Below are positions 3,363 through 25,497 of a DNA stretch of 32,478 nt, in pieces. Positions within the stretch are counted from its first letter, which is position 1, and every line of letters starts with the position of its first letter. The translations under genes and the position numbers were made by a program. The notes beneath the pieces are model-generated. The model was not told where the DNA came from, searched no databases, and saw only the letters and a list, made by a program, of their open reading frames with translations. Origin of the DNA: Craspedostauros australis (lineage: Eukaryota); assembly GCA_030167865.1 (NCBI GenBank), contig JALAGF010004938.1, positions 1-32,478 on the forward strand, in the 5' to 3' direction.

Positions 3363-4871
3363 ATGATGCCGTCAACAACACTCTTGGCATCATCACAGCG
3401 ACGAACACCGTCGGTCTTCGTCACAATAGCACTGGCGTGGTTGATATCTTTTGGAGAATCCTTTCTGCCAGAAGCTCATCGACATGCTGTGCCGAGCATC
3501 AACCGCGTCCCGTCCTGCAGCCGACGATTTGCCGATACCGTCGCCATGGTGGATGACAATTCGAGCAACGACTTGGAGCGCCCGCAGACATTCCTGGACG
3601 AAGAAGAGTACGAGGTGGATGGTGTGAAGATCACCTTCTTGAACGAAGACGACGGCGATGACGAGGAGGATGGCAGCTACGAACAAGAGGTGGCAAAGCC
3701 CAAGCCACGCGCAGGAGCAGGTAGAGAGCGCTGGGACAAACTGAATCCTAAAATCAAACAACGCTTGGTTGAGAAAGGGCAGCGCAAGGCCATTGCGAAC
3801 AAGAAGAAGCGCGAGCCAGCGCATGACAAGAAACGACGTGAGTGTAGAGTGTGCGAAAGTGTGGAGATGGGTTCCTTGCGTGATCGGCGGAAGTTGGGTT
3901 TTTATGACAAGCTCTTGTGTGCATTTCTCCTTTGCCCATAGTGGGACTATGGCTGCGCTGTAGCGATTGAGGAGGCATGGATAGAGAGTACATTGTATTT
4001 TGCGTGCTCTCCCTCTCGCGCATTGGCTACTGGCGCCATACCCGACAGAACTGCTGGCGATTGCGATCGCATGCCCTCTTTCTTTCTGTCCATGGCGTTC
4101 CTGTATAATCATGGCAGCATCAAACGACACTCAACGTTACATTCTCGCTCACTCACACAACCAACCAACAATTGACTTTGCCATTCACGCACTCATCGTG
4201 CAGGCGCCTTGATGTTCTTCAAGGAAAAGCAGAGGGAACGCAAGCTGGCGTCCCGCGTGCAACGTCCATTGGGATTCGATGAACGAACGCCATTGACGGC
4301 CTACTTCCCTGGCATGGAGGTCACCGGTGTTGTCATCTCCTTGACAAAGTACGGTGCCTATGTCGATGTTGGCACCGAATGCGATGGATTGCTGCACATT
4401 TCGCAGCTCACGCGCGAGTTCTTCGTGGAGCACCCGCGCCAGCTGCTCTCGCCGGGAGACGAGGTCTCCGTCAAGGTCCGATCGACGAGTCCGGAATTGA
4501 AGAAGATGCATCTCACGATGCTGGGCATGGATGACGCGAACGGTGGTGTCGTGGACGAAGATGACGACGACGACGACGAATACGAGAAGATCCCGCTGTT
4601 GGACATCGAGCAGGACGACGAGCTGTGGGGCATTCTGAAACGCGTGACGGATTACGGTGCCTACGTCGAGGTGGGAGCGGAAGTCGATGGCTTCCTCCAC
4701 TTCATGGATCATCCTTCCTGGGATCCAGGTGCCCACCCAATGGACTTCATGAAGCTTGGCGACAGAGTGCGGGTTTGGGTGTCGGATGTCAACAGAGAAC
4801 AGAACCGATTGAAGCTCACGGCGAACCGTCCCACGCACATCCCAGGACCGAGGCTAGAGTTGGGGCTTTGA
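3363..4871 (+). CDS. Plastid-targeted tandem S1-domain RNA-binding protein (2 exons)
   Basis: Exons 3363-3837 and 4204-4871; phase-1 intron GTGAGT...CAG joins DKKR|R-ALMFF in frame. Two S1 repeats (GVVISLTKYGAYVDVGTECDGLLHISQL; GILKRVTDYGAYVEVGAEVDGFLHFMD). Signal peptide ends at GES-FLP. Confidence 0.88.
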
Positions 4872-6469: not shown

Positions 6470-6944
6470 GGTGATGCAGATTTGATTGTCTGTGTGTGTG
6501 CGTGTGGGTGTGTTGTGTGTGCACTTGTGGCGATGCGAAGGTGGACGTTGTTGGCGTTGCTGCGAAGTTCGTGCCACGAAGACTCGTGTGTGACGAAATT
6601 CGTCTCGTTTTTGCGTTGTGTGTTGTTGCTGCGCGCGTTGGTTTGTGCTGTGTGTGTTTGCTGCTTCGCGCCGCGATGGCGTCGACGATTAGTACGATCA
6701 AATTTTATTCGTGATTCGATGAATATGGACTGACTTGATGTGCCGTTTCGCGGCAAAGGAATTTGAATCCAAACGGAAGAAAGTGGTGATGGATGACCAA
6801 TCTCGGCTCGACAAACAAGCGCGAGCGCGGACGACCCCACGCGATCGGTGCGAGCAGCACCTGCATCCCAAACTCAGCAGGTGTTGTCAAACTCTCATCA
6901 TAGCTCGTGTGATGCCGTACTCGGACATCGAATCATTATCGATC

Positions 6945-8026
6945 ATGAATAGAGGCTACCGTGATAATCGTGCTCGCAATGGAAGGCAAGGGGAAAGGAT
7001 GGCACCGGTGAATGTGGATGGCAGAGGAAGAAATGATGCAAGTCGATCGCAGCGCGGCTGTGGACACGGTCGTGACACGACAAGTACTGTCGTTGGTGCC
7101 GACACGATGGCATCATCCAAGCGCGATTATTCGTCGTTGTCATCTGCAGCTCCATCCTCTCGTCACCAGCAGACACCACAGCAGCAGCAGCAGCAGCAAC
7201 AAGGCAACCAACATCGAACGAAACGGCTGAAGTTCAGCATGAGCGCCGGTCAATCCGAGACCAAGGAGCCCGAATTCCGCAAGCTGGATCGTTCTGACTC
7301 GGCACACGCCAACAAGATGCAGAAACGGCATCGTGAAATACTGAAGGGCAAAAATACGATCGGTTACGAAGAATATCTGCGACAGGTACCAAAGGAGCGA
7401 CGACGAGCGCGATCGATGAAGACTCCGTCAACTCCGGATCATACGTTGGATATCTCCAACAAGCGATGGCTTGGCATGGTTCGGGCGTGGTGAGTGTGTC
7501 GTTATCGATGCGAGGGTGGCTGCGCGTGCATGCACTTTCATCCATTTTTCCTTCGGCCAGATTCCATGTCTCTTTTGCATATCCTTTGATCTGCTGCCTG
7601 CTCATCTATGCTCATCTATTCTTTGCGCAACCTATGAACAAAACAAAAAGGCGTCGGGCCTTGCACGAGTATGATCCGCCAGATGTCAAGACGCTGAGTC
7701 AAGAAGGGACGAACGATAGTGCATCTTCCACACCAAAGCGTGATATATTCCAAGCTGGTGCCTCAAACAGCAAGGCGGACAATAGCGATGGGGTTGTTGA
7801 GGGCAAACGACCACATCGCTCAGAAGATAAAGGTGTCACAAGTATAGCACTTGGCCAAGCATCAAACAGCCAAGCAGATGGAACACAGCATGGACAGAGT
7901 GGTGATGGCCGAGAAATCAGCAACGAAGATGGCATGGAGCAGCCGAATCAATGGGATGGTGGTCTACCTCCGGAGGGTGCCGCCTTGGATTGGGCTGAGG
8001 TTGACAGTGACGACGATCTCATCTGA
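6945..8026 (+). CDS. SLBP: Histone RNA stem-loop (hairpin)-binding protein (2 exons)
   Basis: Intron 7490-7650 (GTGAGT...AAG, phase 2) completes the SLBP RNA-binding domain RHREILKGKNTIGYEEYLRQVPKERR...TPSTPD...SNKRWLGMVRAW|RRALHEYDPP. Start codon uncertain (6912, 6945, 6999 and 7107 are in frame). Confidence 0.88.
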
Positions 8027-10123: not shown

Positions 10124-13100
10124 CTATCTGGATCTTCTGGAAAATGAAATGTCCTTCTCTGCCGCCAACACGACCGAAACGTCCTTGGGCGCAATTCGGA
10201 CCTGCAGGCACGGCAAGGCTTCGGGCGACGCCAGACTTGACTTGTACTCATCGTACGAATCCAGCAGCTCTTCCCACGTGATCGCCGAGCAGGTCTCCCT
10301 GTCTACTTCGTCTGACAGAATCAGCGAGGACGGGGATGCCACGGTGTCGCCTGCCGTGCGTGCTACCACGATCAAGGAGGAGATCTTGCGCGGCAGGGCA
10401 CGCAGCTGTGTGCCGTATCGCAAAATTGCGGCATACAAGGGACCTTCGCACGGGATGTTGCGTTGGCCGACCGAGTCCAGCACGAAAAGGAGGAATCGGA
10501 ATTTGTCGGAAGCTTCAGGATCGACCTGTCCGGAAATCTCACCACGCAGCATCATTCGCTTGCGTGGGAACAGATTCATGGCTTCGAACATGTCACGGTA
10601 CATGGCCTTGGATGGGATATTGCCTTTCTCAAAGAGGTCCGTGGCAGCGCGTCGGGCCATGTCGTAGTCACCTTGTCGCAACGATGTTTCGATGATGACA
10701 CCATAGACTCGCATCAGGTGCTTGCCCTTCAGCACCGAAGATCGTCGCGGTAAAGCGGCGACGATGTCGAATGCTTCCTGCATGGATCCCTCCATGCAGA
10801 GAGCTCGCACGCCTTGCGCCATGGCGTGTCCATCCGGTTCCTCCATGCGTCTGTAGATATCGGCGGCCATGTCTGGTTTGCCAGACGACAAGCAGGCACC
10901 CATGAGCGCGGTCAATGTCTTCAAATTCGGTTTCAATCCCAACGCATTCATCCTCGTGAGCAAATCGAATGCGCGCTCGTGATCTCCCAATGCAGATGCT
11001 GCCGTGATGGCGGTGGTGTAGAGGTATACGTTCTCCATCAGTCCCACAGTGCGGGTATCGGCGCAGGCCGATTCAAACAAAGTCACGCATCCTGCCGGAT
11101 TGCCCTGTCGCAGCAGTCCCGACATGAGGAGGCCGTACGTGATGGAATTGGGCGCCACGCCGTCCAGCTCCATTTCATTGATGATGAGCTTCGCAGCGAT
11201 CACCTTGTGTCGCTCGCAAAGAACCTTGACGATTTCGTTGTAAGTGACTACGTCCACTTCGATTCCACGGTCCTTCATGTCGTAGAGCATCTCCTGGATG
11301 TCGCTGTCCTCGTGTGCGATGATGGGACGGATCATGGCGGTGTAGGTGAATTTGTCTGGCTTGACGCCGGTTCGTTCCATCTCGGCAAAGAGGTCCAGTG
11401 CGCGGTTGTACAGACCAGCACGCGCAAGGGCGTTCATGATGGTGTTGTAGGACACGATGTCACGGTTGGGCGTGCCGATCTCGATGTTCTTGTTGCTGGG
11501 TAGGTTCATGCTCTGGAAGAGCTTGAAGGCTGCCTTCAATCCTTCCTTGGTCTGCGTGGTGGAGGCTGCCGAGATGGCGATATTGTAGCACTGAGTGTCT
11601 GCACGCAGGGTGCCATCGGGGCCAGAGTTGGGCCACACGATGGAGTCCAACCCGTCAATGGTGGTCGCGCTCTGTCCTTCGACGGCCGCGAGGACGCGGC
11701 GGATTGTGTCAAAATCTCCCCGCTGGGCATGCGCCTTGAGCAGGGAGCTGACGATGTACACATCCAGCGAGTCCGTGGTCGCAACAATATGCTTGCCACC
11801 CTTGCCAACCACGATATTGTTGGGGATGGCGTTGGAACCGTTGGAGGATAGGCCCACGCACGATTCGAAGGCGCGGATGGCACCATCTGGCTTATTGCAA
11901 GAGAGGTAGGCATTCATGATCATCGAGAGGGTGACGGCATCGACGGTGGCTTCGGCACTGGCAAGCGCATCCATCACCTTATCTGCCACCAGAGCTCTGA
12001 CTGCATACTTGTCCACGAATTTGGCCCTGCCCATGAGCTGCTTCCGCTGTTGCTTTTCCTCGTTGGAATACCGATTCAGAATTTCGCGGCATCTGCGGAT
12101 GAGCTCCGAGGGTGATGGCTTTGTGGATGGTTCTGTCGTAATTGTGCCCGTCGTGGCGCTCCCGTTTGTTCGGCTTCCACTGTTGATGGCAGTCTCTGAA
12201 GTTGCAGGCGCGGCAACAACGACAGGGGTAGCATTACTACCGTCATCGTCGGCAAGGTTGAGGTTTGGTCGCTGGAATCGCAAAGTGATCTGCTGACCCG
12301 GCAAACGCGCCGTGACGGCCGAGATAACTCCCTCGACAGTGGAGACAGGCCAGAGCTTGTCACCGATCGACGCGTCCACGGCGAGGATGCGATCACCTGG
12401 TTTGACAGCATAACGCACCAACGTTGGGGCGTTCTCTGTGAATCCTGTGACCTGGACAAAACCATCCCCAGTTTCTGCGGTGGTGTAAATAGTGTGTTAT
12501 GTTGTGTAGGATATGTGTGTGTGTTTTTGTTGGAAGGTGCGATAAGGGCAAATTGCGATGGAAAGAAGATGTGAGGAAGAGACGCGGTAACAACAGAGAT
12601 GGATATCCCTTCATTCATTCATTGGATGGGGTTCATTCGCGAACACAACAAAGCAGCACCGCAAGGCACCACCACAATGATACAATTTGAGTATTCGCAC
12701 GTACCGGCCAATTCCAAACCCAAGGGCTTGGTGAGCGTGAGTTCGAATTGATTGTCGACAACGGCGTCGCCATCGAGTCGTTGGAATTCCAGCTTGATGG
12801 ATGACGCACGACGCGAGGAGACCGCCGAACGAACTCCCTCCAGGGTGCTCTTTGGCCACTGGGCATCGCCCAACGTGGCGGAGGTGGATCGGACGATATC
12901 GCCCACTCGCACACCTGCCTTCCACGAAGCGCTGTTGGGTTCCACGGCCACGACGACGACGCCTTGGAAGTTGTAATCGACTCGTCTCAGGATCGCAGCT
13001 TTGTCCATGATGCTGTCGTCGTCACCATCTGTTGTTGTTGTGGTCGATTGATTGTCGATGTCTGCATTCTTAACCTGCTCAATCTGCTCGATCCGCAGCG

Positions 13101-13728: not shown

Positions 13729-15086
13729 TGTGATTGTAAATCTGCGGGTGCAGGATAATGTGCAAACGAGTCTGGTCTGGTCTGATCTCTCTGTTGGCGG
13801 AGTGTGTGAGAAAGAGTATGGCTATTGCTCGATTGCTGTTCCGCTGTGTTACGCTGTGTTGCGTTGTGGAGTGGAGTGTTGCTCTGATGACTCTTCAAGT
13901 TGTGATCCTTTGAGGCATGCCAACGCGGGCGGGCGGTTGGGAGCGAAGATGAGTGGCACGAATGAAGCGCAAAGCGATCCTTCCGTGTCTTTCGTCTCGT
14001 CTTGTGTTGCTTTCGTTGTTGCTGCTGATGCAGATCGCAATCGTATCTGCGTCTGTTCCTGTACTGTCACTGAGCGACAACGATTGGCAATGAATGACGA
14101 TGGATTGTGCTCGTTGCAGCTGCTGCTATGGTGGCGTTGGAAGAGATGACGACAGCAGCCTTCCTCAACTTCTTCTCTGCTGTTCGTTCACCGTCACTCA
14201 CAATCCCTGCTCTCCTCTGCTGCACTACTCTCTTCTTGACTCAGCGGCTCAATCCTCCTTGTCCTTTGTCTTGTTCTTGTCCTCCCCTTGTGTGCGCGTC
14301 GTGACCTGTTGTCCTCACGAGTTGCTTCGCTCACCGTTGACGCTCCTTGTTGTGCTGTGTTGGCGGACGCCGCTGAGTTGTTTTGGTGACATGTCGTCGA
14401 TTCCACAAGAGCTTCAACAACGCTCCGACAATCGCATCACATCAACCGGCATTTTCGCTCTCACACACATACGCTCCGAATTCTCGCGTGTCTCATGGCC
14501 GGCTTCGTTGACCAATCACGTTGGCCGCGATCTTCTTCGTCACGCCTGACAAAGCAGATGGCCATCAGCGCCCACCGTTGTCTTTGTGCCGGAAAGACAG
14601 AAAGACAGAGAGAGAGAAATGAAGCGAAACACAAGCGGTTCTTCTCGACGCCCAGAACCGCTCTTCGACGATCCGAAACACGTCACTTCAACTACGACCC
14701 ATCGCAGCACAGACACAATCTTGGTTTGTTCGCATCAGTCATACAGTTCATTTTGATCGAAAATACGACCCGTTCGATTATATCCACTCTTGCCAAACTC
14801 GAGTTTTGGTTTGACACGGCGAGTCGCCAAAAGCGACATGTTCTGCCGCGAAGAAATCCCTCCGACACCCATCATCACCAACACCGACCATGGCACTCAA
14901 TCCGAAACGCAGTTGCCGCAGTGAGCGACCATGCCACCGCAGTCGCAGCGCAATCCGACCAGAAGTCTCGAAGCTGCAGCCAAGACAGGAACCCGAACGG
15001 CGTCCCGCATCAAACACATCAGGCCCATCTGCTTCATTGAAGACTTGCATTGGAGACGAACATCCCACACAAAGCATCAAGGCAGC

Positions 15087-18000
15087 ATGTCGGGACACTA
15101 CGGCCATGGCGGTGGCGGTGGCGGTTACAGTGGAGGACATGGCGGAGGACATGGTGGAGGAGGTGGAGGCTTCGGCAGACAGCAATGGCGCAGCGATGGC
15201 CCGTCACCCAAAAGATACCGCTCCGACGGTCAGCAACATGGGCGAGGATACGACAGAGGCGGCCGTGGTGGTCGTGGAAGGCAATCTGGTACCATCAATA
15301 GACCAGCGTAAGTACATACGATTACAATGCTGCGAGGCTACTCGTAGAGTGTGCATTATCCGTGCCGCGCTCAATCGCCAAAAGTGCCTACCGAATCAAG
15401 CGCCAGTCTCTTGCGAAAGCATCTTCGTTGCATCTGTACTGTGCGGGCACAAGTACAACACAACACCAACCGAACCTCACAATCCTGGACCTCCTTCTGC
15501 CACTTGACCATGCGTGGTGTCCGGACCGATCGCCCACACGCACCGCACATTGACATGCACGATAATTCTTCACAAACCGCGCCAACACAACCCAATCCAA
15601 CTCGCAGCACGGTGAGAGTACTGACCAACTTCTTCCCCATCGACTTCCAAGCGAAGAACGCGAGAGAAGTCTCGCAGTACCAAGTTACCATCGTGCCCGT
15701 TCGCCACTTCATCAAGAAGGATGAGAATGGAACGTTCATTCGCGATGAAGACAACAAGCCCATCAGGACCGTCGCACCTGGCGCCAAGTCACGGGTGACC
15801 GGATTCAACAAGAGCATCTCGCGCGGTTCCACGGAGCAAACCCGTGCAATTCTCTCCAAACTCGAAGATGAGCTGTTTGGCGGCGCCGGCGGCTCCGGCA
15901 GACATGGAGAGGTCATTGTTGTAAGTCCTTCGTTGCATTCCATCCTACGCGCACTATGCACGCGTGCTGATCCATTGCCGTCCAAGCCAAGCATCGTCCA
16001 TGAACAAATCCATGGTGTTCTCAGTCCTCAAGTCATCGTTCCTGGACTCGCCTCGCCTCACGATTCGCTGACTTGTTGTCTTCTCCTTCATCCTTTACAA
16101 CAACCCCAAACCATCATCCTGCACTCAAATTGAACACGATCAAAACAAATTCAATCAAACCAAACCATCGCTTTGCTTGCATTCCTCAGAATGATGGATT
16201 GTCCATCGTTTACAGCGACTCGAAACTCAACGACAGCTACCTCGTCAAGATCCAGAACCAATTCGAGGAAACTCGCTTTGATGGGTATGTGTTGTTCATC
16301 TGAACTGCGCTCCGATGCAAGTGCAAGCATACTCGCACGACAGATCCTCCGTCGAACTCGTAGACTGATGACATCTTCATGCTTCACTGTGTATCTCAAC
16401 TTCTACTCACATTGCGTTTTGCACAACTTTCTCTATCACGATGCGACGCACTCTGCACATGTTCTGGCCACACAATACGCACGATACGCATGATACGCAC
16501 GAGACAGATCACCCAAGCTGGAATCATTCCAGGTCTATCTGAAGGAGGTGGCAACTATCAGCCTGGACAATCTTGCCGATTGCGTCAGGATGGCGAGGGG
16601 GGAAGGGCCATTCAAAGCGTTGTCGGGTGGCGTGCTCGACACGGTCGACTTGAGCAAAGAAGCTGCCCTGGGTGCAATGCGAGCGACATCATTCGTCAAT
16701 ACCATCGTCGGGCATGCTGAGATGAAGAACCTTCTCGCGAGCGGCAGGGATCCGAAGAGATTCTACAGGGAACCGAACAGAAGGGAGATCGACAACAGCA
16801 GACTGCTGCAAAAATACTATGGAAGGGTAAGTTGATCGCTGATCAAGTGCGCCACCAAATGCAACGTGTGGCGACTACGTTCGATAATTCTGCCAAATCC
16901 CTCCATTGCCTCACGAACAAAGCACCTTTTCCGCGATCGCCACTGATCTTCTACATTGGTGTATACATCATCTTTTACCACAACTTTTTCGCCAACTTGT
17001 GTACATGCATCACATCACTACCATCAACATCCTTCCGCACCCCTGGCTGTGCGACGGCGTCTCTCACTCGATAGAACAAACATCAAACGCTCGCCCCGCT
17101 CATCGGGATTTCACAGTCCGTGCGTTTCACACAGTCAGGAAGCCTCGTCCTGACAGCAGACACGAACATCAGTCACTTCCATCGTTCCACATTCCACGAA
17201 AGCAATGAGCCAATCCCTGTCTACAATCCTTCAGCAGGGACATTGGCTGGGATTTCTATGGGCAGGGGTCCGTTGGGCAACGACCTCAAGCAAAAGATTT
17301 GCGACCGACTCTGGGCGATGGAGTTCAATGTCAAGCTAACAATCCCGAAGGGTTGCGCGTGGGAAAGAGGTGAGTGACGTACCATACTCATTGGCAGAAC
17401 CTGCGAAATGCTGTGCTCTCCATCTTCCAATGGCCATGGTTGTATGATACTCGCACACATGCCATACGGACATACGCACTCGTACATATCTCACATATCG
17501 ATGCATTCACCCAACGTGTACTAATACTGTTCCATACCTATGATGCCACGCCTCATTCGAGCAGAGCTGAGAGACCGTGGTAAGGAGAATGAATTCATTG
17601 AAGGGAAGAGGCGCCAGCTTGAGAACAGGTACAATCTACGCATGAAACGTGACCATGACGGACCAACGCGCATCGAAGAAAGAGGCATCCGCTTCGATCC
17701 CACATCTGTCTGCTTCATCATGTCTCCGCCGAGAAGAAAAGACGACAAAGTGAAAGGAGAAGACAGGACACAGCCAGAACCTACGGAAGTCCTCAGCAAG
17801 GCACCCGACGAAGAAACGCTGGAGCCGGAGGGAAAACAAGTCAGAGTCATCGACTACTTCTTTGAGAGATACGGAATCCGTATCAACCCCAACCTCCCCT
17901 TGATCAACACAGGCAAAGGCTGGTTCTCAGTTGAACATCTTTTCCAACGCACGACGGAAGTGCGTGGTGATGAGCTCACGAAGGACGACGTGCTGAGTTT

Positions 18001-21000
18001 CAACGATGAATTCGCGTCCACCAACCGCATCCATCACATCAAGGACACCCTCCAGTGGATACTGCATCAAGGCAATGAAAGGCAGACACTGAATGACTAC
18101 CTGCAGCACTATTCGCTGACTGTCAACACTGAACCGCTGAACCTGGAAGCCAAGGTGCTGGACGTCCCCACGCTACGGTTTTCGAACAACAACACTGTCA
18201 ACACTTCAAGGGGAACATGGAACCTCAAAGGTGTCGAATGGAGCGCGTAAGTCGTTGTTCGTTTACTGATGAAGGCTAAGATTCATGGGGCAGTCATTCT
18301 TCGTGCAGTTATCGATGTCATTTGCCTTGCCGCTACCACCACTCTCAACTATTATATCCCTTTGCTCCAAGCTTTCTCCTTCTTTTGTTGCATGGTCTAC
18401 CATACATCGCATACCGTGTGTCGCATGTCACATGTCGCCTATCGTCCATTTCGAATCAACAGTTCAGCAGACGTGGATTCATTTGCCGTCTTGAATGCCA
18501 GCGGTAACAGTTGCGAGGATTACATGAACAATCAGCTGAGGTCCATGAGTGCTCACGGGATGCGGGTCCCATCTGTGAATCTTGCCGACGTCACCGCTCA
18601 TTCTCGCTCATCTCATTTCAGCCTCGAAAAGCAAGATGTAAGTGGCAACCAGCTCGCAGGCTCATCTGAGTGCTTACGTGTGCTTTTGGCGGCTACATTG
18701 CTACGCTCTTTGAAAAACAACCGTGCATGGGCATGCTTGGCTTGTGCTGTCTCCGATTGCCTTGGATAGAGTCAACCAGAGCGAATCGAATTGAACTGAA
18801 TTCAATTGCAACTCCTTGACTTTCATTTATCCCTACTTGCACACCACCGAATTCGATCCCCCGCCTCTTGAATCGCATTCGCAGTTTGCAGCACTCTTTG
18901 ACGAGGCTATTGGTCGTGCTCGCAGCTACTTCTATGGATCTATTCGCGAGATGCAGGTGGGGCGCTTCCTCAATTATCGCACAGACACAGGAGAAGTGGT
19001 GCGGGCCGCAGTGCTGAGAGATCCGGAGCAAGGAATATTCCTCATCCCACAAAGCCGGACCAGAGAGGATGCAACGTGGGCAACCCACATTGTAGTGAAC
19101 AGGAAGAACTCCCTTGCGGATTTCGCGAAGATGATGTTCATCCAAAATGGCAAGCCATGTGATGTGTTCGATCTTCGCCAAAATCAGCGTGGTGAATATG
19201 AAGGTACGTCAATGGAAACAGTAGGAACAAGAGAAGTAATGGAGACAATTGTACAAAGCGCAGAATGCAGAGCGCATATCGCAGGCGGCGGGGCTTTGAT
19301 GCCATGCAAACAAATTGGTGACTGCTGTTCACACTTGTCATCAACTCTCTCACCAAATCTCTTCCTTCGTCGCTTTTGTCTCCTTACCAAATGTTTCGTA
19401 TGGACAACCACGTTTACCAAAACAACGACGACGATAATGACGTCAATGACGGAACGATCAATACTTCGCCTGCGACGGATGCAGTGTCTGGGGTTGTGTA
19501 CGAACTAAAGAGCATTCCATACCGTTACGTCAGCGCGGATGACATCAAAAGCAACCCCAAGTGCTTGTTCGCAGTGAGCGAGAAGCCAGGATTCGTCTCG
19601 GAAAATGAGCTCAGCTGTCCTGACGTGGTTTTCGTGTACTTTGCAGACCGCGCCAAGACGGAAGTGTACGATTTCCTCAAGAGTTTGACCCACGCAAAGT
19701 ATCCCAACACAGTCACCCAGTGTGTGTGTCACGCCAAATACAGTTCCCAGAGGGCCAAGCAACAGTAGTAAGTGATGGCGACGTTGACCAAGGCAACGCT
19801 CTCCTCCGCTTCGTTGGCATTCCTGAATCGACTTGCGTCGCCAGCGCAACTCCAGACTGACACAGTGCCTGCAAATTCTTTCCTCGATCTGTATTTGCCT
19901 CGATGAACCTGGACCTGCGCACTTTGGAAACGCTTGGATTTGTGGCTTAACGCTCCAGCTGTTCCAACATTTCTCTGAAGCTCAACACCAAGCTCTCATC
20001 AGCAACCAACCAAGCAAGAGCATGGTCCACATGCCACAACGCTACCAGCCAGCATGGGCAGGGGCGAATGCTCGAGGGGATCCCCTGGATTTCCGAAGTG
20101 CCTACCTTGGTGGTTGGATACACCTTCGTCCGCGGTAAGTGGCGATCATCGTGAAGCGTGTATTGTGCTGCCAGCTCTCTAGGGGATATGGAGTTGAGCC
20201 TGTGTTTCTCCCTTCGCACATTCATGTATACGTGTGTTGTGCAGCTGCTCCAGCCATCTGTCCATCCATTCGTGTGTCTGTCTATTCCATCACTCACTCG
20301 TCTGTGTGTGCGCTCACTTCTTCTTTCACATGATACCTTCAAAATCGCACGCCGATGCATGCCTCAATGCGACTGACATCCATTTTTCGTCTTCATTTGC
20401 AGGCATGGGGAGAGAAAGTCTCACTGTGGTTGGAGGGTCCGTCTGCCTTGACAAGTTTTGTGTGCAGATGGGACACGCTGTGGAAATTCAGCGCAAGGAG
20501 GGGGAGTGCGTCACAAGTACACGAATGAAAAGCATGTGCAAGGTCAGTGCAACATACTCTACGTACACTATGGAGTACTGGTTGGTTGTTTAATGATGCG
20601 GGTGCTACTTGCTGCAGCTGCGGACGGTGTTTGAACCATGCATATTGCGTGTTGCATGCTGTTCTCACCAGTCATCCGTGGCCCATTCCTGCCTTTGTCG
20701 TCATTTTGCCGTCATTCTCTCTATCATTTTCCCAACCTCTACTCCCTTACTCTCACCGGCACAGCATCTGCTGTTCCAGTACAAGGCGCACCAGCATGCT
20801 TCGAACGACGGAACGAAGCCTCTCGGTGTGAAGAGAATCGTGGTGTTCCGAAATGGAGGTGCAGATGGAAGCTTTCCCGAGATCTTGAGCAATGAGATTA
20901 CGGAAGGGATCCGCGAAGCCGTCGCAGAGGACAGCGCGTGCGGAGCGGACGGTCCCTGCAGGGACTCAAACTGCTTCGAATGTCGCCCACCAGTCACCTG

Positions 21001-21761
21001 CGTCGTCTCTCAAAAGGATCATAGTGTCCGCATCGTGCCAGACATGGGTGCGCAGCGGGGCAAGCCGGTCAATGTCGACAGCGGGACGGTTGTGGACGAC
21101 CCAAAGATCATGATGTTCGAGAATGGGTTGAAGTTGGCCACCAGCGCATCCGAAGCCGGAGACAATGGCTTTGATTTCTTTCTCACTGCACAAGCCGGAC
21201 TGAAGGGCACTTCGAAGCCGGTGCTCTACCGCGTTTTGGAGAATGAAAATTACACGAGGACCCCACCGGGCGGAACATCCTTGACACGCGACATCCTGGA
21301 ACAGATGTGTTACCACATGTCATTCCAGTATGGCACAGCAACAAAGTCAACGCGGCTGCTCCCGATTCTGAAGTATGCCGAACGAGCGGCAACCCACGCT
21401 CGCAACTACTTTGATCGTGAGTACGGCTGCAGTATCGTCTTGCTTGCTTGCTGACCATACTTGCTTGAATCAACGAATCTGATACTGCGGTGCCATCATG
21501 TGCCCTTGCATACCTCGTATCGCCTTCTCACATCCACATAATGTATCGTCCAACCCTCTTGCGGTGTATTACAAACACTCTGAACATCGGTCCGGCGTGA
21601 AACTTGAAGACCTTGCATATACCAAGCTGAACACAGAGGCAGATCTGTTGGTGGAGGAGACGCTTGCTCCCATGCTTCAGAGGTTGTGGACCGAGGGAAG
21701 GATCAACGAGCGGCCGGACTTTTTGCATGGCCTTCGGTGCCATCCACACACCACCGCATGA
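15087..21761 (+). CDS. AGO: Divergent Argonaute protein, ~1273 aa, predicted slicer-inactive (13 exons)
   Basis: Exons 15087-15307, 15608-15920, 16190-16284, 16508-16826, 17075-17369, 17565-18246, 18463-18637, 18885-19203, 19485-19767, 19959-20134, 20403-20542, 20765-21416, 21610-21761. All introns are GT-AG and phase-compatible, giving 3822 nt. Domains: Gly/RGG N-tail; N (VRVLTNFFPI, NDGLSIVYS); L1 (GISQSVRFTQSGSLVLTADT); PAZ (VIDYFFERYGIRINPNLPLI); L2 (LEAKVLDVPTLRF...GTWNL); MID (VYDFLK, VTQCV, NISLKLNTKL); PIWI (RIVVFRNG, NVDSGTVVD, FDFFLTAQAGLKGTSKPVLYRVL). An in-frame upstream ATG also exists at 14931. Confidence 0.93.
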
Positions 21762-22427
21762 TGGGCGAAGCAGCAGCGAGATGGTTCCTCTGCTGGTCGT
21801 TTCACATTTCCATCGACTGCAAGCCACAGCGATGCCCTTATACACGAGTCGCTGATCCGCCCGCCATCGTCCATGGTCCGGATCCCGATCCCGACAGCCC
21901 TACAGAAACAAGCTCAACACAAACACTACATATCAATACTTGCATGATAATACTCTGCTTGAGAGAGAAAGTAAGAGAGAAACAAATTGAAATCCGACTC
22001 CTACTTGTTCATCCAGCCCTGATCGGAGCTTTCGCAGAGAGAACGATCCCCAGTTGCAGGAACAGGTCGTGCGCGTATCAGTATTAGTAATAGATCGTCA
22101 GTCCACAGGCACTCCTTGTTCAATTGCCGGTAAAATACAGCGGCGCTGTGCATGGACAGGGCGAAATCGTAGTTGCAGGTGAACAAGTCCAAGAGAACTC
22201 GTCACAACCTGAAGTCAACGCTACTATACGTGTGGCACAACCACAAGCCGTTGAACCAATAACACACAACATAGAACCCGACTCCGAAAACTCCCCCTCA
22301 CACACCCTTGCGTCGTACTCGCACTAGCCCATTCGTACCTCACTGCGGAGCATACGAGCAGGCGCCACGCTCACGCAACATCCTGCCATCCAGTCAAGTT
22401 GGAAATGGACGACCAAAGGGCAGAGCG

Positions 22428-23255
22428 ATGATTCTCAATTTCAACGACGCCGTTCTGTACGAGAATGACGTCGCCATCCTGAAGAACAAGACCGAATGGC
22501 TGAACGATGCCATCGTCCATTTCTACTTCACGTATCTGCAGCACCAGCTGCAAGAGAAGAGCTCCGCGCCGAAGGTGACAATGCTGAAGTTCTTGGATCC
22601 GAGTGTTGTCAACTTCTTCATGCACCAATGCATCGATGACGATGACATCGAAGACTTTGCAGGCGGATTCGAGGTACCCGGAACCAAATCAGCGTCAACA
22701 ACGTCAGCAACCTCGGCAACGTCTGGCATGATCTTCATCCCCATCAACGACAGTCTTGGAAGTCCCACCGCATGGCAACGAGCCGGATCTGGATCACACT
22801 GGAGTCTACTCGTTATTGTGATTAGTTCGGATGATGCCATGGGCGCATCGTCGCCACCCCCACCAGTACCAGCTCAGCACCAGTGCTCGTTCTGGCACAT
22901 GGATTCAATGGCGCCCGGCAACGAACGCGTGGCTCGGATGGTTGCGCGCAAGTTTCAGAATCACATCATCCATCCCAAGCTCAAGACGGATTTCCGATTC
23001 CTGCAAGCCGCGGACGTTCCGCAACAGGAGAATTCGTACGATTGTGGGTTGCACACCTTGGTCGCTGCTGAGCTCGTCGCTCGTCGCTGTCTGGACCGCC
23101 AAGTATCGGGACCGTCGAGAATACCCCCGCTTCCGGACGCCATGCTCGATTTCGAATCCGCCCTGCGCACAGCATTCAAAGAAGAAGCGAGCATGTGTTC
23201 CAACCTCCGCAGAAGGATCCTGGACATCGTTGAGGATCTTGCCAATGCAGAATGA
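22428..23255 (+). CDS. SENP8: NEDD8-specific protease (Ulp1/C48 family, SENP8/NEDP1-like)
   Basis: ILNFNDAVLYENDVAIL...WLNDAIVHFYF; catalytic triad His (GSHWSLLV), Asp (HMDS), Cys (QQENSYDCGLH). Short protein consisting of the catalytic domain only. Confidence 0.85.
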   Translation: MILNFNDAVLYENDVAILKNKTEWLNDAIVHFYFTYLQHQLQEKSSAPKVTMLKFLDPSVVNFFMHQCIDDDDIEDFAGGFEVPGTKSASTTSATSATSGMIFIPINDSLGSPTAWQRAGSGSHWSLLVIVISSDDAMGASSPPPPVPAQHQCSFWHMDSMAPGNERVARMVARKFQNHIIHPKLKTDFRFLQAADVPQQENSYDCGLHTLVAAELVARRCLDRQVSGPSRIPPLPDAMLDFESALRTAFKEEASMCSNLRRRILDIVEDLANAE

Positions 23256-23415: not shown

Positions 23416-25383
23416 TCATTCTGCTTCGGCTTTGGCCTTGTTGTTCGCCGCCTTCCGTGCGGCGGCCTCTCTCAGCTTGTCCTTCTTGCTCTTGCGACGA
23501 CCCTTGACGCCACCGTACATCTTGTCATGTGCGAGGCCCTTGTCAGAATGCTCCACACCAGGCACCTCCTGCGTCGAAGCCTTCGACCCGATGCTCCACC
23601 TGTCTTCGTTCGGTTCAAATCCCGGCAAATTCTCGCGATCCACCGATTGCGGAAGATGCCGCTTCTCGATGAGGTTGAGATGGGCTTCAGTCTCTGGCGT
23701 TACGAACGTGATCGCAGTGCCATGCTGGCCGGCTCGACCAACACGCCCGATGCGATGCACAAAGTCCGCGGTCGATCGTGGCAGATCGTAGTTCACCATG
23801 ACGGGCAAGTTGCTGATGTCGATACCACGGCTGGCAACGTCGGTGGCCAGCAGCACGCGGATCTTGCCACGCTTCAGATCCTTCAGCCGACGCGATCGCG
23901 CATCCTGGTCCAGCTTGCCATGCAGTTCGGCGCTGAGGATGCCAGCACGCTTCAGCTTCCGGCTCACATGCTCGGCGGAGTATCGCGTGGAGACGAAGAC
24001 AAGAACGCGATCCCAAGATGGGTTGTCCTCCAACAGCGTGCGCAGCGCCTGGGTGCGTGCTGGGCGTTCCAACCGGATCGTCCTCATGGCGATGGTCGAT
24101 GCGGGACCAACGCTTTGCAATTGCTGAAACGATGATGAGTTGACCGAGGATCGTTCCAGCTTCTTTTGCAGGCTCGAAGATACCTCTTCCTGCACCATTC
24201 GGTCTGAACTGGAACACGAAATACGAAGGATGGGAACGTCCTCATCATCGTTGCGGATCGAATAGATACGTCGCAGAACTTGATTGACGCGGGGTTCGAT
24301 TTGCTTGGGGAAGGTTGCCGAGAACAGCCACGATTGAACCTTCTTCTGGGTCGGCAGAAGCTTCAAGACTGCATCCAGCTCTGAATTGAAGGCGCGGCCA
24401 AGCAATCTGTCGGCCTCGTCCACGATGAAATAGTCCAAGTCTTCCAGCAGATTCAGCAGCTGCCCTCTGCCGTCGTCATCATCGCGATCCAGTTTCAACG
24501 ACTCGATCTGCTCCAGGCTCAGCGACGCATCGTTTTCATCATCACCAAACGCATCCAGCAATCGTCGTTCCAGCGCAGCATCCAGCGCCGATGAATCCCC
24601 CTTCTCTGTTGCGTAGTACGTCAAAACATCGACCAATCGACCAGGTGTCGCGATGAGCACATCCAATGTCTCATCATTCCTTGCCAAGTCGGCAAGCTTG
24701 GAAATTTGCGGTTCCAATGGGATGCCACCGTAGATGGAGAGAATGTTCCACCGTTGCTTGCGCTTGGTTGTGGAAACGTTGTTGGCCAAGTTGTAAACGA
24801 CGGAACCAATCTGTTCGGCCAATTCTCTCGTGGGGCACAGGATCAACGAGGAGATGCGCGCCATGGACTTTTGTTTTCGATGCTGTGGTCGCGGTTGCGT
24901 CAGGAGGTTGTTCAACAACGGCAACACGTATGCGGCTGTTTTACCGGATCCTGTGGGCGCCTCACACCACAATGCGTCGGCTGCGACTGCGGTCGCGCCA
25001 TTGCTGCTATCGGTATCGTCGTCGCTGCTCAGCGCGGTGCTGTAAAAGTCGTCTTCGTCTTCATTGCCGCCGGCTCTTCCTTCATATGCATGACGAAGAA
25101 GCTTTGGAATGGCCAACTGCTGCACTGGTGTGGGATGAATCCAGTTTGGCTGGGATCTGACTGATGACAGTACCTCCGGCGGCAATCCTAGATCAGCGAA
25201 CGTATCCAAGCTGGTGAAACTATCCTCTGCGTCTACGTTTGTGCTGCTGCGTAGCCATGACGGTGTTTGAAAGCGTGCATTCTGACGGTTGGACAGAGAC
25301 AGTGGCTGAAATGCATCAGCAGAGGATGGCCGACGCACTCCCTGTGCGATCAACAGCAGAAGCAGACTCGTCGCGAACATCAT
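23416..25383 (-). CDS. DEAD-box ATP-dependent RNA helicase (RhlE-like), probably plastid-targeted
   Basis: Q motif (FADLGL...PTPVQ), APTGSGKT, PTRELA, TPGRL, DEAD, SAT, ATDVASRGID, HRIGRVGRAG. Signal peptide followed by ADA-FQP. Single exon. Confidence 0.95.
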   Translation of the reverse strand: MMFATSLLLLLIAQGVRRPSSADAFQPLSLSNRQNARFQTPSWLRSSTNVDAEDSFTSLDTFADLGLPPEVLSSVRSQPNWIHPTPVQQLAIPKLLRHAYEGRAGGNEDEDDFYSTALSSDDDTDSSNGATAVAADALWCEAPTGSGKTAAYVLPLLNNLLTQPRPQHRKQKSMARISSLILCPTRELAEQIGSVVYNLANNVSTTKRKQRWNILSIYGGIPLEPQISKLADLARNDETLDVLIATPGRLVDVLTYYATEKGDSSALDAALERRLLDAFGDDENDASLSLEQIESLKLDRDDDDGRGQLLNLLEDLDYFIVDEADRLLGRAFNSELDAVLKLLPTQKKVQSWLFSATFPKQIEPRVNQVLRRIYSIRNDDEDVPILRISCSSSDRMVQEEVSSSLQKKLERSSVNSSSFQQLQSVGPASTIAMRTIRLERPARTQALRTLLEDNPSWDRVLVFVSTRYSAEHVSRKLKRAGILSAELHGKLDQDARSRRLKDLKRGKIRVLLATDVASRGIDISNLPVMVNYDLPRSTADFVHRIGRVGRAGQHGTAITFVTPETEAHLNLIEKRHLPQSVDRENLPGFEPNEDRWSIGSKASTQEVPGVEHSDKGLAHDKMYGGVKGRRKSKKDKLREAAARKAANNKAKAEAE

Positions 25384-25497
25384 GATTAGTCCCTCGGTCT
25401 CGCAATGACTCAGTCGTTATGAGCTTCTCCTTTCGTATGGGTGTTGGCGTGTCGATCGGAGTGATGCTACTCCAGAAAGGGGTAACTGTCACGCGAC

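Follow-up and report, generated by a model that had tools for sequence, protein, structure and literature searches.

Can an Argonaute that has lost the residues with which slicing Argonautes cut RNA still be a maintained, guide-binding protein? This question is raised by a gene at 15087..21761 on the plus strand of contig JALAGF010004938.1 (assembly GCA_030167865.1) of the diatom Craspedostauros australis, of which positions 1 to 32,478 of the forward strand were analysed (hereafter the window, 32,478 nucleotides in full). The gene is nuclear, intact and spliced, and encodes a diatom-type Argonaute of 1311 aa. An initial annotation had described its product as a maintained, non-slicing, guide-binding effector, a description supported by the loss of catalytic residues, a retained guide pocket, an intact and spliced gene and a separate clade. 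On these sequence grounds, the protein is probably a guide-binding effector that does not slice.

Slicing by Argonautes requires a tetrad of the form DEDH/D (PMC6284064). The corresponding positions of the C. australis protein were located with P0001, a 437-aa public database protein that is 100% identical to aa 875-1311 of the gene model, aligned by HMMER with KpAGO (4f1n) and QDE-2 (2yhb). In this alignment, GYT pairs with GSD/GYD, FRNG with FRDG and KYAE with YYAD, which assigns the three replacements to catalytic positions 1, 3 and 4. T994 (GYT, aa 992-994; codon 20122-20124) occupies position 1 in exon 10 (19959..20134), while N1074 (RNG, aa 1073-1075; codon 20852-20854) and E1250 (KYAE, aa 1247-1250; codon 21380-21382) occupy positions 3 and 4 in exon 12 (20765..21416), which carries the PIWI core. 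The claim that three of the four DEDH positions are replaced thus holds by residue identity but not by charge, which is lost at only two positions (1 and 3), position 4 staying acidic as Glu. The candidate Glu finger, QRKEGE (aa 1027-1032; 20489-20506), is present as described in a loop encoded by exon 11 (20403..20542), with E1030 at 20498-20500 and E1032 at 20504-20506, but its column is ambiguous, as HMMER sets the reference Glu opposite C1033 of the loop, one residue past E1032. An AlphaFold2 (AF2) model places the Thr in strand 114-123, the Asn at the end of strand 194-200 and the Glu at the start of helix 370-393 (in the numbering of the model), with the E1030/E1032 loop between a strand and a long helix and an overall order of elements that is the RNase-H order of the PIWI domain. 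Where slicing Argonautes carry DEDH or DEDD, the C. australis protein presents Thr, an ambiguous Glu finger, Asn and Glu. Both aspartates of the tetrad are indispensable for slicing. Read from its aligned residues, the RNase-H-type centre is disabled, with Thr, Asn and Glu where slicers have Asp, Asp and His/Asp.

The distribution of these replacements was followed across relatives. A profile of five relatives was searched against 1.84 billion representative sequences, returning 7083 proteins at E<=1e-3. The ranking contains a clear step, with about 30 proteins matching the whole profile in one stretch (1050 to ~256 bits) and, below it, canonical Argonautes matching the profile in two stretches. 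Of 153 rows, 145 were aligned to the profile (eight fell below the coverage filter), and these include 21 long rows of the upper group, hereafter the clade, with the C. australis protein among them. Position 1 is Asp in none of the 21 (Ser in nine, Ala in four, Gly in four, and Thr, Cys, His and Asn in one each), position 3 is Asp in 13 (otherwise Asn in three, Ser in three and Glu in two) and position 4 is never His (Lys in eight, Glu in two, Asp in one and other residues in ten). In contrast, canonical rows (n = 110) are acidic at position 1 in 97% of cases and at position 3 in 96%. Seven clade fragments with a readable position 1 also lack Asp there. The Glu-finger column holds Glu or Asp in only about half of the clade rows, and the finger is therefore not a maintained feature. 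A further 13 clade proteins, made up of cluster mates and extra matches, are not independent of the first 21.

In a maximum-likelihood tree (IQ-TREE, quick settings; 70 rows and 351 columns, comprising the 21 long clade rows and 49 of 112 canonical rows, with 63 canonical and 12 fragment rows left out), the clade is parted from canonical Argonautes with a Shimodaira-Hasegawa-like approximate likelihood ratio test (SH-aLRT) value of 100 and a branch of about 1.5 changes per site. All seven named members are diatoms (Nitzschia sp. Nitz4, Thalassionema nitzschioides, Thalassiothrix antarctica, Ditylum brightwellii, Odontella aurita, Dactyliosolen fragilissimus and Stephanocyclus meneghinianus), bearing out the distinct diatom Argonaute clade that the initial annotation had put forward. 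With a radial centric at one end of their range and raphid pennates at the other, these members suggest that the clade, and probably the loss of position 1 with it, is old within the diatoms. The nearest relatives of the C. australis protein are at most 42% identical to it, and a metagenome scan with P0001 for closer relatives gave one short match at 54% (L001) and nothing else. Exon 12 also contains a series of columns that switch between canonical and clade rows (Q to K1191, R to K1195, D to N1204, R to T1235, R to K1238 and S to R1241), for example the N1204 column, which is Asp in 92% of canonical and Asn in 95% of clade rows; the switches at aa 1191-1241 give the clade the signatures GLKGTSKP, NEN and FQYGTATKS.R.

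In the MID domain, the aligned residues of the pocket that receives the guide's 5' phosphate are intact, as had been claimed. The motifs concerned are VYDFLK (19664-19681) and TQCV (19715-19726) in exon 9 (19485..19767) and LKLNTKL (19975-19995) in exon 10, which supply Y906 (19667-19669), K910 (19679-19681), Q923 (19718-19720), K946 (19978-19980), N948 and K950 (19990-19992). HMMER pairs VYDFLK and LKLNTKL with the Y..K and K.N.K of KpAGO and QDE-2. The six pocket columns are 95-100% conserved in the 110 canonical rows, and the C. australis protein matches all of them. Across the clade they are near-invariant, with Y906, K910, K946, N948 and K950 found in all 21 rows and Q923 in all but one, so that the pocket is fixed although the clade is only ~35-40% identical overall. 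The coordinates given initially for all seven catalytic and pocket motifs proved exact to the base.

The predicted structure agrees with these assignments, showing an Argonaute MID-PIWI fold. The AF2 model of aa 875-1311 has a predicted local distance difference test score (pLDDT) of 81.8 and a predicted template modelling score (pTM) of 0.85, and the top 50 Foldseek matches to it are all eukaryotic Argonautes, with template modelling (TM) scores by query of 0.58-0.65; the best are human AGO2/1/3/4, AtAGO10 and KpAGO (E 6e-20 to 1.6e-17). Exon 12 alone scores 79.5 bits with the Pfam family PF02171 (Piwi; cut-off 28.9), which is matched by 23 of 23 clade relatives. The protein ends in HPHTTA, encoded with the stop codon by exon 13 (21610..21761), and the clade shares a conserved C-terminal motif, P-H-x-x-A. 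A Cys-rich loop of the form C-x5-C-x4-C-x2-C (20939-20983, aa 1103-1117) is inserted in PIWI past the helix that follows N1074 and ahead of the next strand; related spacings (C..C / C..GC..C) occur at this position in many relatives, and the loop may be a zinc knuckle.

The gene model behind these residues comprises 13 exons on the plus strand with a coding sequence of 3936 nt, which splice into a single open frame of 1311 codons, confirming the exon count, frame and extent of the initial annotation. All 12 introns are GT..AG and 167-300 nt long (mean 228), and the only stop is the terminal one at 21759-21761. The ATG at 15087 is the proposed start of the Argonaute frame; an alternative in-frame ATG lies 52 codons upstream at 14931, the frame being open from 14925. 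Either may be the start codon, and the 52 extra residues from 14931 are unlike anything in relatives. Exon 1 (15087..15307) encodes a Gly/Arg-rich N-terminus of 74 aa with 30 Gly, 10 Arg, 2 RGG, 4 RG and 5 GR. Such N-termini are common to relatives with complete N-termini, and homologous ones occur in six of nine long relatives. Each other exon is aligned over 44-100% of its length to at least seven of the nine. Exon 2 (15608..15920) covers the N domain region, with a GTAAGT donor, a CAG acceptor, a consistent frame and 73-95% aligned to seven of the nine. Exons 3 (16190..16284), 4 (16508..16826), 5 (17075..17369; L1 region) and 7 (18463..18637; start of MID) are likewise supported by splice sites, frame and alignment to relatives. 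Exon 6 (17565..18246) encodes a putative PAZ and linker 2, and exon 8 (18885..19317) MID helix 2 and the core of an insertion that is specific to the clade.

Public sequences confirm part of this structure directly. P0001 confirms the last four of the 12 introns. Further support comes from X1, the one public run that contains this stretch, whose type was only guessed to be RNA; it was read as cDNA-like because its contigs join exon to exon, as cDNA gives. X1 contigs bridge three of the same four introns (19767>19959, 20133>20402 with the cut at +1, and 21416>21610), the skips being bounded by GT..AG. Exon 9 is thus held by the first of these joints, exons 10, 11 and 12 by P0001 and contigs and exon 13 by P0001 and the last joint. 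Contigs also lie on exon 6 (17563-17796 and 17964-18222) and exon 8 (18896-19119). Transcript-type confirmation of the annotated exons therefore extends to the last four introns, and the other eight follow from GT-AG sites, frame and homology. No X1 contig covers 15000-17540 (exons 1-5), and certain other bins are likewise empty, gaps that carry no information on expression. Two contigs start at 17563 and 20763, each 2 bases upstream of an acceptor (17565 and 20765), where the bases are identical in spliced and unspliced forms; this would fit an assembly graph with a fork at the point of divergence between the forms, and appears to favour the CAG acceptor at 17564. One X1 contig (21427-21639) reads unspliced through the last intron, with one base missing at 21530. 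Such read-through would end the protein at ...NYFDREYGCSIVLLAC*, removing the conserved C-terminal tail. A search with exon 6 for longer proteins, as a transcript or protein record of the N-terminal half, returned none at E<=1e-5. The Argonaute gene holds its 12 introns within 6.7 kb, in contrast to neighbours that are mostly single long frames of 400-790 codons, and a Nitzschia relative of 1092 aa occupies a span of only 3960 nt, judging by its record name.

The clade-specific insertion lies within MID, between helix 2 and strand 3, at 18575..19618 on the plus strand (aa ~680-889; exons 7-9, with two introns within), as delimited by the profile alignment and the model. It is ~120-180 aa long and beta-rich. 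In 115 canonical rows, the median number of profile positions passed over at this point is 152 (positions ~199-350) and the median number of residues in their place is 29, whereas clade rows fill these positions and the C. australis protein matches the clade profile in one stretch. Conserved motifs within the insertion include wF.TR, CLVIP, TH, AR.MV and VDPF. An AF2 model of its first 106 residues (18885-19202) forms a helix followed by about 7 strands (pLDDT 70.3). Foldseek of this model against the PDB gave nothing at E<=0.001 (best 0.62), a search made uninformative by the absence of the last 1-2 strands (exon 9) from the model. With the same incomplete model, VIA-align found no chain at Z>=5 among 48,161 (best Z 2.4); several small barrels of the Tudor, chromo, Mfd-RID and CarD types appear in its list, but their Z of 2.0-2.4 is at the level of noise. 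A usable match for the insertion was likewise absent from the ESM Atlas, and Pfam recognised no family in exon 8 or in the corresponding region of 23 relatives. One may speculate that the insertion is an output module that replaces slicing, docking a chromatin or translation partner or reading a mark, in which case diatom Argonautes would make up a fifth class of eukaryotic Argonaute, distinct in mechanism and carrying its effector domain within itself; we regard this as a tentative and rather doubtful proposal.

A number of observations weigh against reading the protein as a guide-binding effector that does not slice. Acidic residues remain at or next to the catalytic columns, namely E1250 and E1030/E1032 (the loop alignment of the latter being uncertain by one residue), and alternative acidic side chains near the centre were judged by sequence conservation, not by model coordinates. 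Loss of position 1 is not universal in the clade: P0216 (636 aa, C-terminus PFRPHLSA), one of the 13 extra rows, retains Asp at both position 1 and position 3 and carries Arg at position 4, the sole such row among 34 clade rows, and may represent a less decayed lineage. The PAZ stretch at ~17801-17917 in exon 6 scores 23.3 bits with Pfam, below the cut-off of 28.8 (the ArgoL2 stretch at ~18026-18181 in the same exon similarly scores 29 bits, below 33.3), and the match of exon 6 to solved PAZ domains is weak (E 0.04-0.3, to PAZ/L2 of human AGO4/AGO1). His1255 stands where canonical PIWI domains have the Arg in contact with the 5' phosphate, in a column that varies within the clade. As for the gene itself, junction support stops at the last four introns, introns 1-8 being placed by strong donors (GT-AG), phase and frame, and homology. 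Finally, it is possible that a second, slicing Argonaute lies elsewhere in the same genome, outside the window.

The weak PAZ and the variable Arg column, together with the large foreign insertion in MID, would fit a protein of Argonaute descent that no longer works with small RNAs and has become structural or scaffolding. This is unlikely: six pocket residues that stay invariant or nearly so at ~35-40% clade identity would hardly be expected unless 5'-phosphate binding were under selection, Pfam PAZ is matched (E<=1e-3) by 18 of 23 clade proteins, and the C-terminal tail is conserved. The remaining acidic residues bear on another alternative, in which the protein is still a nuclease that cleaves with non-canonical residues (E1250, E1030/E1032 or others) or at a different place, for example in the MID insertion or Cys-rich insert. 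Position 4 is indeed acidic, two Glu flank the Glu-finger column and the insertion has conserved polar motifs (TH, DPF) with no recognised fold. However, positions 1 and 3, which in RNase-H-type centres are the two metal-binding Asp, are Thr and Asn here, and the variation of the clade at position 1 (S/A/G/T/C/H/N), with mostly Lys at position 4, is unlike a conserved alternative metal site. Nor is any acidic column near the centre conserved in the clade, the only clade-specific one, E985, lying nine residues up the strand from T994, and the insertion has no nuclease-fold match (best Z 2.4, in a search with an incomplete model), which together make a surviving nuclease very unlikely. That the gene is a decaying paralogue (a pseudogene), still open by chance, is highly improbable: its catalytic residues are lost, its product diverges more than any other row in parts of the alignment and has extra segments of its own in exons 8-9, and one contig retains the last intron, but 1311 codons without a stop over 12 correctly phased GT-AG introns, the existence of the spliced form in public data and the retention of all clade-conserved pocket and signature residues speak against decay.

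If the protein is a guide-binding, non-slicing effector, it would load 5'-monophosphate small RNAs. In the Phaeodactylum case, the loaded RNAs would be those of 26-31 nt that depend on Dicer and arise from transposons; Dicer-dependent small RNAs of this length from repressed transposons have been reported for P. tricornutum (PMC11910954). The loaded protein would then bind complementary transcripts and silence them without cutting, by recruiting partners through its Gly/Arg-rich N-terminus, as the Toxoplasma Argonaute recruits PRMT1 and Tudor-SN, and perhaps also through the beta-rich MID insertion, with transcriptional or translational repression as the outcome.

Comparable proteins are known from other systems. 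According to the accessible text of its description (PMC2877743), the Toxoplasma gondii protein Tg-AGO shares with the C. australis protein an RGG or Gly/Arg N-terminus, retained MID 5'-phosphate residues and a lost PIWI triad. Tg-AGO is a small-RNA-binding protein whose association with Tudor-SN and polysomes requires the RGG region. It differs in being apicomplexan and in having no MID insertion reported in that text, and the C. australis N-terminus is mostly poly-Gly, with only 2 RGG. Among functional models for a protist Argonaute that is the only one present and does not slice, Tg-AGO is the best. The nearest solved proteins, both by sequence and by fold, are KpAGO (4f1n), the MID-PIWI of QDE-2 (2yhb) and human AGO2 (for example 4w5t), with E values of 7e-12, 9e-12 and 3e-8, respectively. 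These share the MID pocket residues and the order of PIWI secondary structure with the C. australis protein, but have a complete DEDD/DEDH and lack the P-H-x-x-A C-terminus and, as far as canonical rows indicate, the MID insertion. Human AGO1 and AGO4 are loaded with guides and silence without cutting by recruiting partners. Most of the tetrad is retained in both, which are closely paralogous to a slicer. The diatom clade differs from these two in having lost position 1 and in being deeply separated.

For diatoms, the catalytic divergence and the separate clade were already published in 2009, and the gene is a further member of a known group. The Fig. S5B legend of De Riso et al. 2009 (PMC2724275) states that the divergent catalytic motifs of diatom Argonautes 'presumably impair their endonuclease activity', and the paper assigns these proteins to a clade of their own, far removed from the families of AGO, PIWI and worm group 3. 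As described there, Pt2_47611 of P. tricornutum and Tp3_1029 of T. pseudonana (PMC2724275) are, like the C. australis protein with its weakly scoring PAZ, diatom PAZ/MID/PIWI Argonautes with divergent catalytic motifs; they are likened here by that published description rather than by placement in the clade recovered here, to which the Thalassiosirales member Stephanocyclus (P0217) does belong. Compared with that account, the C. australis gene has 12 introns, 1311 aa and a MID insertion that goes unmentioned in the accessible text of De Riso et al. 2009. In the two diatom genomes sequenced first, one AGO-like gene and no PIWI were present (PMC3145265). Apart from De Riso 2009, literature searches on slicer, MID and phylogeny found no paper that treats the catalytic residues of diatom Argonautes. 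The MID insertion, likewise, is unmentioned in the available portions of the diatom Argonaute literature that was searched, and is possibly the only new point of this gene. By a review's account, Grypioti et al. 2024 (New Phytol) reportedly compares RNA interference (RNAi) effectors across diatoms, and may already describe both the clade and the insertion.

The surroundings of the gene are those of an ordinary nuclear locus. Its neighbours, mostly long uninterrupted frames, encode a GT47 glycosyltransferase, an S1-domain protein (4176-4871), an SLBP-like protein (6723-7493), an Asp/Asn hydroxylase, a PPR protein (10124-12496, minus strand), a Ulp1/SENP-type C48 protease (22275-23255, plus strand) directly downstream of the Argonaute gene, a DEAD-box helicase (23416-25416, minus strand) next after it, an HpcH aldolase and an MFS transporter; no connection between them and the Argonaute gene is in evidence. 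Scans of the window with Rfam and for tRNAs and tandem repeats found nothing except two trivial short repeats, and Pfam found no family on the minus-strand open reading frames at 15371-16027, 18693-19208, 19505-19981 and 14778-15203 or the plus-strand one at 14390-15040.

Taken alone, the gene matters little, adding one more diatom to the 2009 picture of RNA silencing that relies on a non-slicing Argonaute. Such an Argonaute fits the persistence of mRNA from silenced diatom genes, as reported in PMC11910954. The clade-wide table is useful in showing position 1 lost in essentially all members and the guide pocket invariant. The MID insertion and the Gly/Arg-rich N-terminus are handles for finding the silencing partner, which would help to explain the erratic behaviour of knock-down in diatoms and could improve it.

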